Shown: positions 54,730-58,951 of the stretch, piece after piece
Layout: every line of letters starts with the position of its first letter
Position numbering within the stretch: position 1 is the stretch's first letter
Origin: Longimicrobiales bacterium
Lineage (GTDB): Bacteria > Gemmatimonadota > Gemmatimonadetes > Longimicrobiales > Gaopeijiaceae
DNA length: 64,000 nt
Reading direction: 5' to 3'
Assembly (NCBI GenBank): GCA_965198065.1
Contig: CBDAON010000004.1
Span: 2,656,001-2,720,000 of the forward strand
Program-made: the position numbers and the translations under genes
The notes under the pieces: generated by a model
What the model was told of the DNA's origin: nothing
Database searches by the model: none
What the model saw: only the letters and a program-made list of their open reading frames with translations

Positions 54730-54859
54730 GCACGCCCGACAGGGGGAAACGGGACCGACCGAGTCAGGCCGAAGGGGGAAAGATGGGGATTATAACCTTA
54801 ACTTGACAGACCAACAAGTTAGCGGCTATTCTTTCTAGTAGAGCAAAGGAGATGAAAGA

Positions 54860-55778
54860 ATGGCCGGAAAAGCCTACCGCGAAGGGATCACCCTCGCACA
54901 GTTGACCAGCCTGTTTCCCAATGAGGAAGCGGCTACCGAGTGGTTCGAGAGCAACGTATGGGGCGGCGAGCGATGCTGCGGGCATTGCGGCAGCCTCAAC
55001 ACCAAGCTGGTCCCCAATGCGAAGCCGATGCCGTACTGGTGCCCCGATTGCCGGAAGTATTTCAGCGTACGCACCGGAACGGTCCTGCGTCGCTCGCACA
55101 TATCGCTCCAGGACTGGGCCTTCGGGATCTATCTCGAAGTGACGAACCTCAAGGGCGTGTCCAGCATGAAGCTGCACCGCGACCTGGGGATCAGCCAGAA
55201 ATCAGCATGGCACATGCTCCACCGCATCCGCGAGACGTGGGCCCCGTTGCGCGAAAGCTTCGCTGGCCCTGTCGAGTTCGACGAGACCTACATCGGCGGG
55301 AAGGAAAAGAACCGGCACGCGAGCAAGCGCCAGGATCTGGGGCGTGGCCCCGTGGGCAAGACGGCGGTCGTCGGGGCGAAAGACAGGGCGACGAACCGCG
55401 TGAAGGCCCGCGTCGTCAAGCATACGGACGGGCCGACGCTTCATCGTTTCGTCCGGGCCAGCGCGGAAGACGGCGCGAAGCTCTACACGGACGACGCTGC
55501 TGCCTACAAGGGCCTAGAGAACCACGAGACGGTCAAGCACTCGGGTCCGTGAGTACGTCAACGGGATGGCCCACACGAACGGCATAGAGAGTTTCTGGTC
55601 GATGCTCAAGCGCGGATACTACGGGGTCTACCACAAGATGAGCGAGAAGCACCTGCAGCGCTACGTCAACGAGTTCGCCGGCCGCCACAACATGCGCGAG
55701 ATGGACACCATCGACCAGATGCGCCACGTCGTCTCCGGGATGGTTGGGCGGCGCCTCATGTACCGGGACCTGGTCTAG
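54860..55778 (+). CDS. IS1595-family transposase (frameshift near 55545)
   Basis: Zn ribbon [46 protein letters not shown]. Confidence 0.92.
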
Positions 55779-55925
55779 GATGCCGAAGAAGGAGACGCCG
55801 AAGACTGGTAACCCGTTCTACCGAGGCGCCAGCCCCGAGGAAGTTGCGCGCGCACTCCTCCAGCGCGCCCCCCCGAAGAAGCCGAAGGCCAAGCCCGACC
55901 CCCCGAAGGAGCGAAGCCCCGACGA

Positions 55926-55954
55926 TTGACCCTACCGAAGAAAATACGTAGGAT
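55926..55954 (+). promoter_or_regulatory. sigma70-like promoter facing the RNA cargo
   Basis: TTGACC-17 nt-TAGGAT. Confidence 0.65.
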
Positions 55955-56113
55955 GGAGAAGCGCCCGGCGGGGGCAAAACCCGTCCGGGCGCTTACAACT
56001 CGTAGGCCGTTAGCAACCCCGAGACAGCAGTGGACTGGGCCCGAGACCCTCACAACGGGTGAAGGACTGACGGCTGCGGGCTGTACTAGTATATAAGTGG
56101 GAAAGGGAGAAAA

Positions 56114-56190
56114 GCCCCTGTAGCTCAAGTGGATAGAGCAACCGATTTCCGACCGGTAGGCTGCGGGTTCGGGTCACCCGCCGAGGGGCA
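56114..56190 (+). tRNA. Atypical tRNA-like gene 1 (Arg-like body, UCC in anticodon position)
   Basis: GCCCCTG..TAGCTCAAGTGGATAGAGC D-arm; ACCGA-TTTCCGA-CCGGT; GCGGG-9 nt loop-CCCGC; 3' strand CGAGGGGC-A. Confidence 0.7.
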
Positions 56191-56220
56191 CACCCCTTTC
56201 AGAGCAAAGTGGAAAGACAC

Positions 56221-56289
56221 GGGCCGCGAGCCGGGTCCAGGATGGCCTCTAAAACCATATCCTGCGGGGTTCGACTCCCCGGCGGTCCA
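56221..56289 (+). tRNA. Atypical D-armless tRNA-like gene 2 with CUA anticodon and Ala identity
   Basis: Acceptor GGGCCGC/GCGGTCC plus A73; T-arm CGGGG-TTCGACT-CCCCG; loop CTCTAAA. Confidence 0.7.
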
Positions 56290-56386
56290 TGCCTCCCCAC
56301 CCTGGAAGCTATAACAGGCGATGTCGCACGTGTCAAGCTCGTAAGTCCTGCCTGGCGTGGTAGCTACAGCCAGCGTCTCCGGTTTT

Positions 56387-56896
56387 CTAGCACTGCCCGC
56401 TCGTGTCCGGATTGAACAGTTCCCAGTGCATCGAGCCGGTGTATATGGGTCCGACCACCGCCAGCAAGTCACCCCTTACAGGTTTCCGCAACCCTTCAAG
56501 TTCGCGGCCGGGAGCGTGTAGAGACTGGGTCCGCGTGATGGTACGCGCTCCGTAGGACCGGTCCACCTGTTGATCTCGGAAGAACAACTCGGCTTCGTTG
56601 CCGGAAACATTCGGGTCAATCATCGTCAGTGTTTGCAACCCCGGGTCCCACTCCCACCGGAACGTGATCGCGGTTCGGCAACCACCGTCGCGGGCAACGC
56701 CATCTCCGTCCGGGTAGACCCAGACTAGGTACAAACCATTGTCACGGGTACCTTCCCGCTTTGTCCAGTCCCAGACACCCACAGGAGATAATGGCTCAAC
56801 AACCTCCTCCGGATCCGGACCCTGGCTGGCGGCTTGCATGGGAAACGTACAGAAGCAATAGAGAAGCAATGCAAGACCGATTCGTTCTCTGTACAT
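56387..56896 (-). CDS. Secreted hypothetical passenger protein of the IS1595 element
   Basis: ATG after GAGGGAGGGGG; signal-peptide-like N-terminus. Confidence 0.65.
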   Translation of the reverse strand: MYRERIGLALLLYCFCTFPMQAASQGPDPEEVVEPLSPVGVWDWTKREGTRDNGLYLVWVYPDGDGVARDGGCRTAITFRWEWDPGLQTLTMIDPNVSGNEAELFFRDQQVDRSYGARTITRTQSLHAPGRELEGLRKPVRGDLLAVVGPIYTGSMHWELFNPDTSGQC

Positions 56897-56960
56897 GGTT
56901 CCAACCCCCCTCCCTCGTGACGGTTGCGGTCCCGGCTGCCCGCAATGGCGCCGGGCCATT

Positions 56961-57090
56961 GCAAACAGTCTCTCGGAGAGAGGAAAGTCCCCGCCTATTT
57001 GCCCAGGCGCGGGGAGCTACCCCGGCCAAGCATTCAGGCTGTTGTATTCAGCGGGTAACCCGACTTCAGGGTCCCCGAAAAACTGTTTGC
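56961..57090 (-). ncRNA. Predicted 130-nt structured RNA / leader (three-way junction)
   Basis: 19-bp closing stem with three G.U pairs on the minus strand; starts just after TTGACA-17-TATCGT formed with the right IR. Confidence 0.65.
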
Positions 57091-57243
57091 GTGGGAAACG
57101 ATACAGCGGGATGGCTACGGTGTCAAGTTAAGGTTATAATCCCCGGAAAGATTCCCATCCGGCGAGACAACTCGCGAAGCGAGCGCAGGATCCACACCAC
57201 CACCGCACCGAAAGGGCGTCAGCATGCCGTAACCTGTGCCGTA

Positions 57244-57514: not shown

Positions 57515-58951
57515 GAGTAATCCCAAAGTTAGTTGAAACTGGAGCGGCCTCCGTCTCAGGCGACAGCATGTGAACGGCTCTCGGGAAGGGTGATCCCGAG
57601 GTCCTTCTGGATCGCGGCCCTGAGGAGCGGGAGGTGTCGGTACCCGAGCAACCTCCGGAGCCGTGACTAGATCTCCAGGAGCGTGGTCGCGAGCCATCGG
57701 TGCTTCTGGCTCGAGTTCTTCCAGTGGTCCACGCGTCCGCACCTCTGCTCGGCCAGGGCGTTCACGGACTCGAGCACGTTGGTGGTCTTGAGCGACTGGC
57801 CGACCAGGGGGAAGACTCCCAACCGGTGGAGGGTGAGGGTCTCCTCGAACCCCTCATCGAGACTGGCCGCCGCGGACTGGTTCACCCCCGCGAGCTCCTG
57901 GCGCAGGGCCTTGAGGTCCTTGACGGCCTCTTCGTACGTGGGCCGCTGGTAGGCGCGCTGCAGACGCTGGCGCCAGCCCTTCTGCTCCGCTCTCGGCAGA
58001 TACGAGATCACGTTCTTCCGCTTGTGCCACTGGCACCGCTGGATGAGCACCTGTCCCTTGAAGACCGCCAGGACGCCGCTCCGGAGACCGCGGGCTCCAT
58101 CGATCACCACGAGCGCTCCGGCCGACAGGTCGAGACCTCGGTCCTTCAGACTCCGAAGGAAGGATCGGATCACCACGGCGTTCTCCGTGTCGGTCTGGAC
58201 GAACCCGAGGAAGACCTTGTCCCCCTTGGTCGTCACCCCGAGCGCGACGACCATCTCGTCCTCGGCAAAGCTCTTGCCGTCCAGGACGAGTGCCACCCCA
58301 CGTCGTAACCCGAGAGGTCCCGCTCCTGAAACTCCTTCAGCTTCGCGGCCGTGGCCTTCTTGAACTCCCGCGAGACCGTCGACTTCGACAGCCCGATGGC
58401 TCCAGGCACCGCCTCGACCGCTGCCTCGTAGTCCCGGCACGAGATCCCGAGCAGCACCTTCCGAAACAGCCCCTCGTCCATCTCGCCGGGCGAGCCATGC
58501 AGCTGCTCATACGCCGCCAGCCTCGACTCTCCGGCCGGGCCTCGCACACCCAGGGTCGGTGCGGTTGGGCGGCCAGCGGCATCCGGTGCGAGTACCGCGG
58601 GTTATGCCCATGCCGGTAATGTCGATCGTCCTCGGTCTTCCTGGCGTGACGTGTTGCCCCGCCAGTTGCTCCACTTCCTCCTCGAGCATCCGGCCCACCT
58701 CCGCCAGTCCCAGCGGAATCAGCTGCCGGATCAGCTCCACCCGAGGGTCCAGCTCCAGCGCCTCGATCTCCTCCCAACTCACCTCCCTCGGTTCCCCGAG
58801 CCGCCGGTCCTTCTTGCCCCGCTCGACGAGCCTTGGCATCCTTCCCATCGGTGGCCCTCCTTCCTCTCTTGTGATCCCGTGGTGTGGTCGCACACCCACG
58901 TTACCTGAGGTTGGAGGCCGCTTCAATTTCAACTAAAGATGGGACTCACTC
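57515..58951 (-). mobile_element. IS256-family element, full length, transposase multiply frameshifted
   Basis: Imperfect IRs GAGT(A)ATCCCAAAGTTAGTTGAAA / GAGTGAGTCCCATCTTTAGTTGAAA; 8-bp TSD CGAGCGCC; LDG, IDG, QRCQWHK, TTN..ES. Confidence 0.93.

Follow-up and report, generated by a model that had tools for sequence, protein, structure and literature searches.

A compact, alanine-marked tRNA-shaped RNA with an amber triplet in an IS1595-family element, and the widespread family to which it belongs

Several described RNAs resemble the compact tRNA-shaped RNA analyzed here. The allo-tRNAs and the polycistronic irregular tRNAs of Mukai et al. (PMC5389517; reviewed in PMC7609411) combine a non-canonical body with an identity that is uncoupled from a highly diverse anticodon. 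In the portion of that work on which we draw, a subset has G3.U70, irregular tRNAs are clustered, and an association with transposons and with toxin-antitoxin genes is described; the branches of the allo-tRNAs are 8/4 or 9/3, their variable arm is long and their size is that of tRNA-Sec. In E. coli, G3.U70 allo-tRNAs with a CUA anticodon were reported to suppress amber, and Ala was one of the main residues inserted (PMC5389517; PMC7609411 section 7); six transposon-linked allo-tRNAs tested by Mukai et al. gave no suppression, and the inactive allo-tRNAs were linked there to transposons and toxin-antitoxin systems (PMC5389517). The tRNA for pyrrolysine (tRNA-Pyl) has a small D loop and an elongated anticodon stem; in the Methanomassiliicoccales this stem is broken and the D stem has no linker before it, and the tRNA-Pyl of M. 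alvus works in translation (PMC7609411 section 8). The identity elements of bacterial tRNA-Ala have been tabulated, with G4-C69 as a minor determinant (PMC9976931 Table 1), and in the tRNA-like domain (TLD) of tmRNA a stemless D loop is held single-stranded by SmpB, as described in the section of PMC3968760 used here.

The window, a 64-kb stretch of DNA from a Longimicrobiales bacterium, contains a 2,360-bp IS1595-family element (54785-57144) of which the compact RNA is cargo (Table 1). An earlier note, made from the letters alone, had given the acceptor, A73, the T arm and the CTA at 56249-56251 correctly throughout. Its suggestion that the RNA is carried by an IS was borne out by the features that define the family, namely a DDE_Tnp_IS1595 transposase, terminal inverted repeats that are perfect and an 8-bp target duplication. 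The break between the two transposase frames is also present in gap-free contigs of the sequencing runs X3 and X4 (records 12 and 18), and the host genome holds many related transposases. The tRNA-like gene upstream of the compact RNA has a tRNA-Arg-like 5' half, which matches the tRNA-Arg genes of the host, a TCC triplet, a 9-nt T loop and one acceptor defect. The passenger gene has six relatives, and the four that were compared end at the same Cys that precedes its TAG; read-through of this TAG was therefore ruled out as a need of the gene, and no read-through target was found within the IS1595 element. A BLAST search with the non-coding cargo in 201 genomes of the host's family returned 5' halves of tRNA-like genes and the leader, and no homologue of the RNA. 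ARAGORN at a low threshold gave noise on the host genome. Stretches similar to the structured leader occur at further places in the host genome as well as in related genomes of its family. A second IS, with a Mutator/IS256-type transposase and 32-nt inverted repeats, lies at 57521-58944, 376 bp from the IS1595 element.

Table 1. Features of the IS1595-family element and of its compact RNA (positions in the window)
Feature	Position	Strand	Remarks
Target-site duplication, 8 bp	left copy 54777..54784, right copy 57145-57152		read from sequence
Left terminal inverted repeat, 24 bp	54785..54808	+	perfect
IS1595 transposase gene, two frames	54860..55778 (54860-55552, 55566-55778)	+	PF12762 in both pieces, weak PF12760
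49-aa ORF 3' of transposase	55780..55929	+	no family
Sigma-70-like promoter match, 9/12	55926..55954	+	~160 nt upstream of both tRNA-like genes; consensus match only
Second irregular tRNA-like gene	56114..56189	+	31 nt upstream of compact RNA; ARAGORN, Rfam 32.8 bits
Compact tRNA-like gene	56221..56289	+	69 nt to A73, CCA not encoded
Acceptor, 7 bp	56221-56227 / 56282-56288	+	G1-C72, G2-C71, G3.U70
Mini D region, 10 nt	56228-56237	+	
Long bulged anticodon arm	56238-56264, loop 56247-56253	+	closed 27-nt hairpin
CUA triplet, anticodon position	56249..56251	+	flanked by U33 and A37-A38; loop placed by pairing alone
T arm	56265-56281	+	5-bp stem and canonical loop
Passenger gene, 169 aa	56387..56896	-	signal-peptide-like start, convergent with the RNAs, no Pfam family
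Conserved non-coding leader of passenger gene	56942..57064	-	weakly like sRNA-Xcc1, 23.5 bits (gathering score 53)
Right terminal inverted repeat, 24 bp	57121..57144	-	perfect

The anticodon arm of the RNA is built from 5 bp, a 2-nt bulge, 3 bp, a C.A mismatch and a 7-nt loop. As the mismatch is pair 31:39, the open loop measures 9 nt and encloses the 7-nt loop. A variable loop is absent, the long arm abutting the T stem directly, and TGC instead of an encoded CCA follows the discriminator A73 (position 56289). The description of the RNA as D-armless held in part: the 10-nt stretch is unpaired in the centroid fold, but two of its pairs are closed in the minimum-energy fold, and in the homologues an xGGU loop is closed by a D stem of 2-4 bp that covaries, so that this copy has a weakened mini D arm. 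Its D-stem change from C9-G16 to A-U is compensatory. ARAGORN and Rfam did not call the RNA at default thresholds, and no Rfam family matched it at gathering and E-value thresholds; the hints obtained lie far below the gathering scores (for instance 24.9 bits for mascRNA-menRNA, with a gathering score of 42.5). The gathering score of the canonical tRNA family RF00005 was likewise not reached, the normal D arm and the 4-5-nt variable loop being missing. With our own covariance models the RNA scores 75.8 bits (R1) and 65 bits (R2), both models having been trained with this sequence included. Folding energy does not set the RNA apart from chance (z -0.50 and -0.72) and is uninformative, and the finding that a pattern drawn from the RNA matched 0 of 100 shuffles of the window is circular; the real evidence for the fold is covariation among homologues. 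An assembly error is ruled out because contigs from runs of two studies, one of them perhaps the window's own source, cover the stretch with 0-1 differences (record 20 of run X4 covers the whole RNA, record 30 of run X7 extends to 56276). The RNA is single-copy in the host genome. The sequencing-run search listed no RNA run with this sequence, which has no bearing on its expression.

The compact RNA belongs to a family of tRNA-shaped RNAs of 67-72 nt that is mostly sporadic and that often resides inside IS1595 or IS1-like elements, and on phage contigs too. The members share a 7/5 acceptor/T branch, a D stem of 2-4 bp, a long bulged anticodon arm and the lack of a variable loop; the most frequent lengths are 19 nt ahead of the loop and 10 nt behind it, with a total of 68 nt. 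The family is widespread and apparently undescribed: the literature searched, mostly without subscription papers, held no description of it, and the portion of the supplement of PMC5389517 that was compared held no sequence of this build, figure S6 (consensus structures of irregular tRNAs), which lay outside the comparison, being a part that may bear on novelty. A first scan of the genome collection, with a pattern of the loop (CUA) and the T arm in which positions 3, 70 and 73 were left free, yielded 92 loci. Forty of these were archaeal-labelled and set apart as tRNA-Pyl, and 11 were bacterial and built like the query (one from Longimicrobiales, nine from Acidimicrobiia, including Ca. Poriferisodalis, and one from Ca. 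Eremiobacteraeota); the others were archaeal-like copies in bacterial-labelled bins, serine-type tRNAs and chance matches. In a model-free alignment of the query with nine of the 11 homologues (10 sequences), 10 of the 23 pairs showed double changes. A covariance model detected members in 3 of the 151 host-family genomes and one further member among 150 genomes of the phylum; in the family of genome G202, of which 79 genomes were searched, a genome carries several paralogous copies.

The family was extended further with a loop-free pattern in which G1-G3, U70-A73, the T arm and the GGT of the D loop are fixed. It fetched 116 loci from viral and 120 from metagenome sequences, the totals for the whole collections being estimated at about 410 and about 4,100; 115 of the 236 loci pair both the acceptor and the T stem, and between about a quarter and a third of the 120 metagenome loci fit the family. 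Membership in the searches with R2 was set at more than about 60 bits and 68-70 nt, because this model scores ordinary tRNAs at 42-50 bits. A D-loop pattern on viral contigs gave six loci, one of which (L229) is a member. In an alignment of 68 rows, taken from the better-scoring loci and fitted to the model, and therefore leaning to it, 94% of the cells are paired (96.8% in helix 2, the D helix) and 20 of the 23 pairs show double changes, including all three of the D helix. Pairs 1-3 were fixed by the pattern in most of these rows; acceptor pairs 4-7 covary freely in both alignments. CCA is encoded in only 8 of the 68 rows. The pair G51-C63 is present in 65 of the 68 rows although the patterns had left it free, and such a pair favours EF-Tu binding.

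A relation to transposons is evident in the flanking genes. Long flanks were available for 80 loci of each scan, which were searched with queries taken in part from member loci and with self-hits discarded. A transposase lies within the fetched DNA for 8 of the 27 metagenome members versus 1 of 53 other matches of the same scan (P = 5e-4), and for 2 of 7 viral members versus 2 of 73 other viral loci. The Pfam families around members comprise IS1595, IS1-like and SWIM-DDE transposases as well as DUF5343 passengers. Most members have no transposase in view, and the Acidimicrobiia copies reside at stable chromosomal loci. The members L467, L468, L508, L450 and L454 lie between housekeeping genes without a transposase in view, which suggests domesticated copies.

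The alanine identity is conserved in the family. G3.U70 and A73 are present in all 11 bacterial homologues, found by a scan that left both free, and also in the members from the model searches; pair 3:70 is G.U in all 10 sequences of the model-free alignment. The RNA studied here has the tRNA-Ala identity set G3.U70, A73 and G2-C71, and C4-G69 instead of the minor determinant G4-C69, a position at which the 68 rows have G-C in 40 cases and C-G in 22. Control patterns point the same way. The viral pattern with G3.U70 gave 16 of 116 loci that pass the helix descriptor, from 19 of the 64 parts of the collection, whereas its G3-C70 version gave 65 loci in the whole collection with 4 passing, and its A3-U70 version 119 of about 200 viral loci with 2 passing, neither of them a new member on inspection. 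Considering in addition the G3-C70 look-alikes L575, L580 and L592 (47-52 bits), we conclude that G3.U70 dominates but is not absolute. The alanine identity proposed by the earlier note is upheld. The host genome encodes AlaRS, a CCA/poly(A) nucleotidyltransferase and RF1. Two of the look-alikes, L580 and L592, are viral and combine a tRNA-Pyl-like compact fold with a CUA triplet, A73 and G3-C70.

With bacterial tRNA-Ala (RF00005) the RNA shares A73, G2-C71, G3.U70, a 12-bp acceptor/T branch, the GG of the D loop and the T loop. It is about 5 nt shorter than the tRNA-Ala genes of the host, with a mini D arm and no variable loop, and unlike tRNA-Ala the compact RNAs carry non-alanine triplets and are mobile and sporadic. 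Six phage rows with a similar compact body do carry the cognate alanine triplet UGC. The phage group concerned (L328, L351, L376, L403, L410 and others) looks like a compact tRNA-Ala with a short D arm.

The amber triplet is not the conserved trait. A census was made of 65 rows to which the CUA pattern had not led, and in 63 of them the loop was placed by pairing alone. The 42 of these rows that have U33 carry 25 different triplets; the rows were picked by a CUA-trained model and are not independent. Outside the loop, the nearest relatives are L490, with UUA (78%), and L468, with CGA (75%). Moreover, a single orthologous locus in 16 genomes has CUA in six and GUA in ten; on the tree of the downstream gene at least 3 changes are required and the two triplets do not cluster, and the alternation may stem from recombination between tandem copies in some genomes. 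Amber reading as a conserved function, which the earlier note had entertained, is therefore not supported. The note had proposed to look for conservation of CUA and G3.U70 among homologues, and had named a variable loop sequence and a Watson-Crick 3:70 pair as findings against its reading: the loop is indeed variable, but G3.U70 is conserved and a Watson-Crick 3:70 pair rare in the viral controls. Most triplets of the family would, judged by the anticodon, put alanine at sense codons.

Nevertheless, the loop resembles that of an anticodon arm. C32, U33 and A38 are found in 39, 42 and 51 of the 63 pairing-placed rows and in 22, 27 and 28 of the 34 rows obtained without any model. Position 37 is C in 24 of the 63 and 14 of the 34 rows, whereas it is a purine in 49 of 50 host tRNAs. 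The stop-reading triplets CUA and UUA together make up 10 of the 42 U33 rows (P = 2e-5 against 3/64), an excess that loses significance when the positional composition of the family itself is the reference (P = 0.18); a model-free recount gave 7 of 34 rows (6 UUA, 1 CUA; P = 9e-4), six of the 34 belonging to the phage group with UGC. The copy in the window, with U33, A37 and A38, is compatible with the anatomy of a suppressor. It has the same loop and flanking pairs as phage amber suppressor tRNAs, several of which also have C.A at 31:39. On inspection these suppressors, 112 viral loci found with an amber-loop pattern, have full-length D arms and variable loops, which the compact RNA lacks; they were set aside as ordinary-looking suppressors.

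In shape the RNA is like tRNA-Pyl. The RNA has the CUA anticodon, elongated anticodon stem, small D loop and G1-C72 of tRNA-Pyl. With that of the Methanomassiliicoccales (delta-N type, M. alvus) it shares a length of about 68 nt, the absence of a nucleotide between acceptor and D stem, the small D loop, a broken long anticodon stem, the canonical T loop and, in this copy, an identical 7-nt loop. Of the 40 archaeal tRNA-Pyl loci, 18 match the commonest lengths of the family exactly. The differences concern identity and arm. G73 is present at each of the 40 archaeal loci and a Watson-Crick 3:70 pair at 39 of them, against A73 and G3.U70 in the compact family, and the unpaired variable nucleotides number three in tRNA-Pyl but usually none in the family, where the arm covaries up to the T stem. 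The triplet of the family is free, unlike that of tRNA-Pyl. In the R2 model tRNA-Pyl scores 26-47 bits, no higher than ordinary tRNAs, so that no specific homology emerged from the covariance scores. A pyrrolysine system was rejected: PylRS and PylC were not found in the host genome (87.6% complete), nor was PylRS in the nine other carrier genomes tested (of 11; incomplete genomes), in a search that did find an archaeal positive control. The member L193:3973-4042, near a SWIM-DDE transposase, has a 4-bp D stem, a short variable loop, G3.U70 and A73, and is called tRNA-Pyl by ARAGORN; no PylRS was found in its genome.

With allo-tRNAs, as far as the portion of PMC5389517 used here goes, the family has in common the non-canonical body, the diverse and uncoupled anticodons, the G3.U70 mark, the link to mobile elements and the neighbouring irregular tRNAs. 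It differs in its 7/5 branch, its size of about 68 nt and the lack of a variable loop, the 8/4 or 9/3 branch and the long variable arm of the allo-tRNAs not being found.

The reading that we prefer, with slightly more doubt than confidence, is that the IS1595 element carries a compact tRNA charged by AlaRS, the CUA copy of which would act as a weak amber suppressor that puts Ala at a small share of UAG codons. The RNA would be transcribed from the element's own promoter, processed at its ends and provided with CCA by host enzymes, charged with alanine by the host AlaRS on the strength of G3.U70 and A73, and bound and delivered by EF-Tu, after which it would enter the ribosome weakly and decode its codon weakly; in this copy the codon is UAG, for which it would compete with RF1. 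The trait under selection would be alanine charging on a compact tRNA body and not amber reading as such; our guess is that the element gains from low-level read-through or mistranslation. This reading is favoured by the retention of G3.U70 and A73, by C32, U33 and A38, by the tRNA-Pyl-like lengths, the stop-triplet excess and G51-C63, by the phage rows with the cognate UGC, and by the host enzymes and the precedent of the allo-tRNAs. The likeness to a working tRNA-Pyl means that such a compact body can decode; neither membership nor descent follows from it. For this copy in particular, charging and decoding are made less secure by the weak D stem, C4-G69 and the lack of an encoded CCA.

The main rival holds that the RNA is an alanylated, EF-Tu-bound mimic that does not decode, and that aids persistence of the element as a decoy for tRNA-cutting or tRNA-modifying toxins or defence enzymes, or as a partner of a passenger protein. 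We consider it a serious though less probable alternative. What weakens decoding speaks for such a mimic, i.e. the free triplet, the frequent C37, the CUA/GUA switching in orthologues and the inactive allo-tRNAs with their link to transposons and toxin-antitoxin systems (Mukai et al., PMC5389517, in the portion used here); against the AlaRS-charged tRNA there is, in addition, the lack of a read-through target in the element. The irregular tRNA-like genes that adjoin the compact RNA and a PemK/MazF-like gene near member L471 would also fit a decoy. On the other hand, no passenger gene or partner protein is common to most members (94 of 138 picked ORFs scanned), and a pure decoy has no obvious need for C32, U33 and A38, for constant arm lengths or for an excess of stop triplets.

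It is improbable that the RNA is a processing or stability element, such as a cut site of RNase P/RNase Z type for cargo transcripts comparable to mascRNA, or a decaying copy in a broken element. The weak match to mascRNA-menRNA and the position of several members 20-150 nt downstream of a passenger gene on the same strand agree with the former, and the broken transposase and weakened D stem with the latter. Processing, however, does not require the conserved G3.U70, A73 and anticodon-type loop, and decay is at odds with the perfect inverted repeats and target duplication and with the compensatory change in the D stem.

Less probable still is a stand-alone tRNA-like domain of tmRNA, alanylated, bound by SmpB and entering stalled ribosomes without decoding, the miniature tmRNA or SmpB mimic of the earlier note. 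The compact RNA and this domain have in common the alanine marks G3.U70 and A73, a reduced D region and a long helix where an anticodon arm would normally be, and the xGGU motif recurs in the D loop of the host tmRNA. Yet the D stem of the family covaries where the D loop of the TLD is described as stemless (PMC3968760, in the section used here), the longer D loop and the 3-nt linker before the T stem of the host tmRNA are both missing, and the family has an anticodon-type loop and no coding domain. ARAGORN and Rfam called no tmRNA in the window and the RNA contains no tag frame; the tmRNA mimic was accordingly dropped. RNAs that do bear the marks of the domain turned up separately in the same scans: L420:301-369 and L489:2501-2567, of about 68 nt, have a stemless D loop, a closed hairpin, a short linker and G3.U70, and form a class of their own.

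That the IS acquired a tRNA-Pyl, whether true or orphaned, is the least probable of all, since, despite the shared length, loop, bulged stem and missing linker (PMC7609411), the ARAGORN call for L193 and the existence of one natural tRNA-Pyl with A73 (reported in PMC11467909), it is contradicted by the failure to find PylRS in the host and the nine other carriers and PylC in the host, by the G73 and Watson-Crick 3:70 pair of the archaeal loci and the low R2 scores.

A bolder extension of the preferred AlaRS-charged tRNA, which we regard as rather unlikely, is that transposons and phages spread a third structural class of working tRNA, of tRNA-Pyl size, alanylated by the host and with a swappable anticodon biased to the UAN box, that imposes stop read-through or X-to-Ala mistranslation; with its Pyl fold and alanine marks, L193 raises the thought that tRNA-Pyl may have arisen from this pool of RNAs or escaped into it.

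Should the compact RNAs be charged and take part in decoding, modifiers of the genetic code that tRNA finders miss or call tRNA-Pyl would be present on common mobile elements, and an amber loop without pylS would not mean use of pyrrolysine. They would, in addition, constitute a natural minimal substrate of AlaRS without a variable loop, a direct test of the rules of tRNA length compensation and a scaffold of small size for expanding the code. Without decoding, they would represent a common alanylated mimic of tRNA.

Other irregular tRNA-like genes recur beside members. Those of Arg type occur at L742 and L520, and the unexpected triplets of such genes (TCC in the upstream gene of Table 1, GCG in L742:1586-1661) possibly point to a second family of cargo. 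At L311:3565-3672, in an IS1-like element, a tRNA-like gene of Ser/Leu type with a very long variable arm directly follows a CUA member. In the family of G202 one RNA paralogue immediately precedes a selB-like frame, a place at which one might look for a tRNA-Sec gene and which may hint at a selenocysteine role, and carries varied triplets; each Acidimicrobiia paralogue follows a strong hairpin (the loci of the selB and hairpin observation in this family are L294, L299, L300, L301, L307, L308, L282 and L283).
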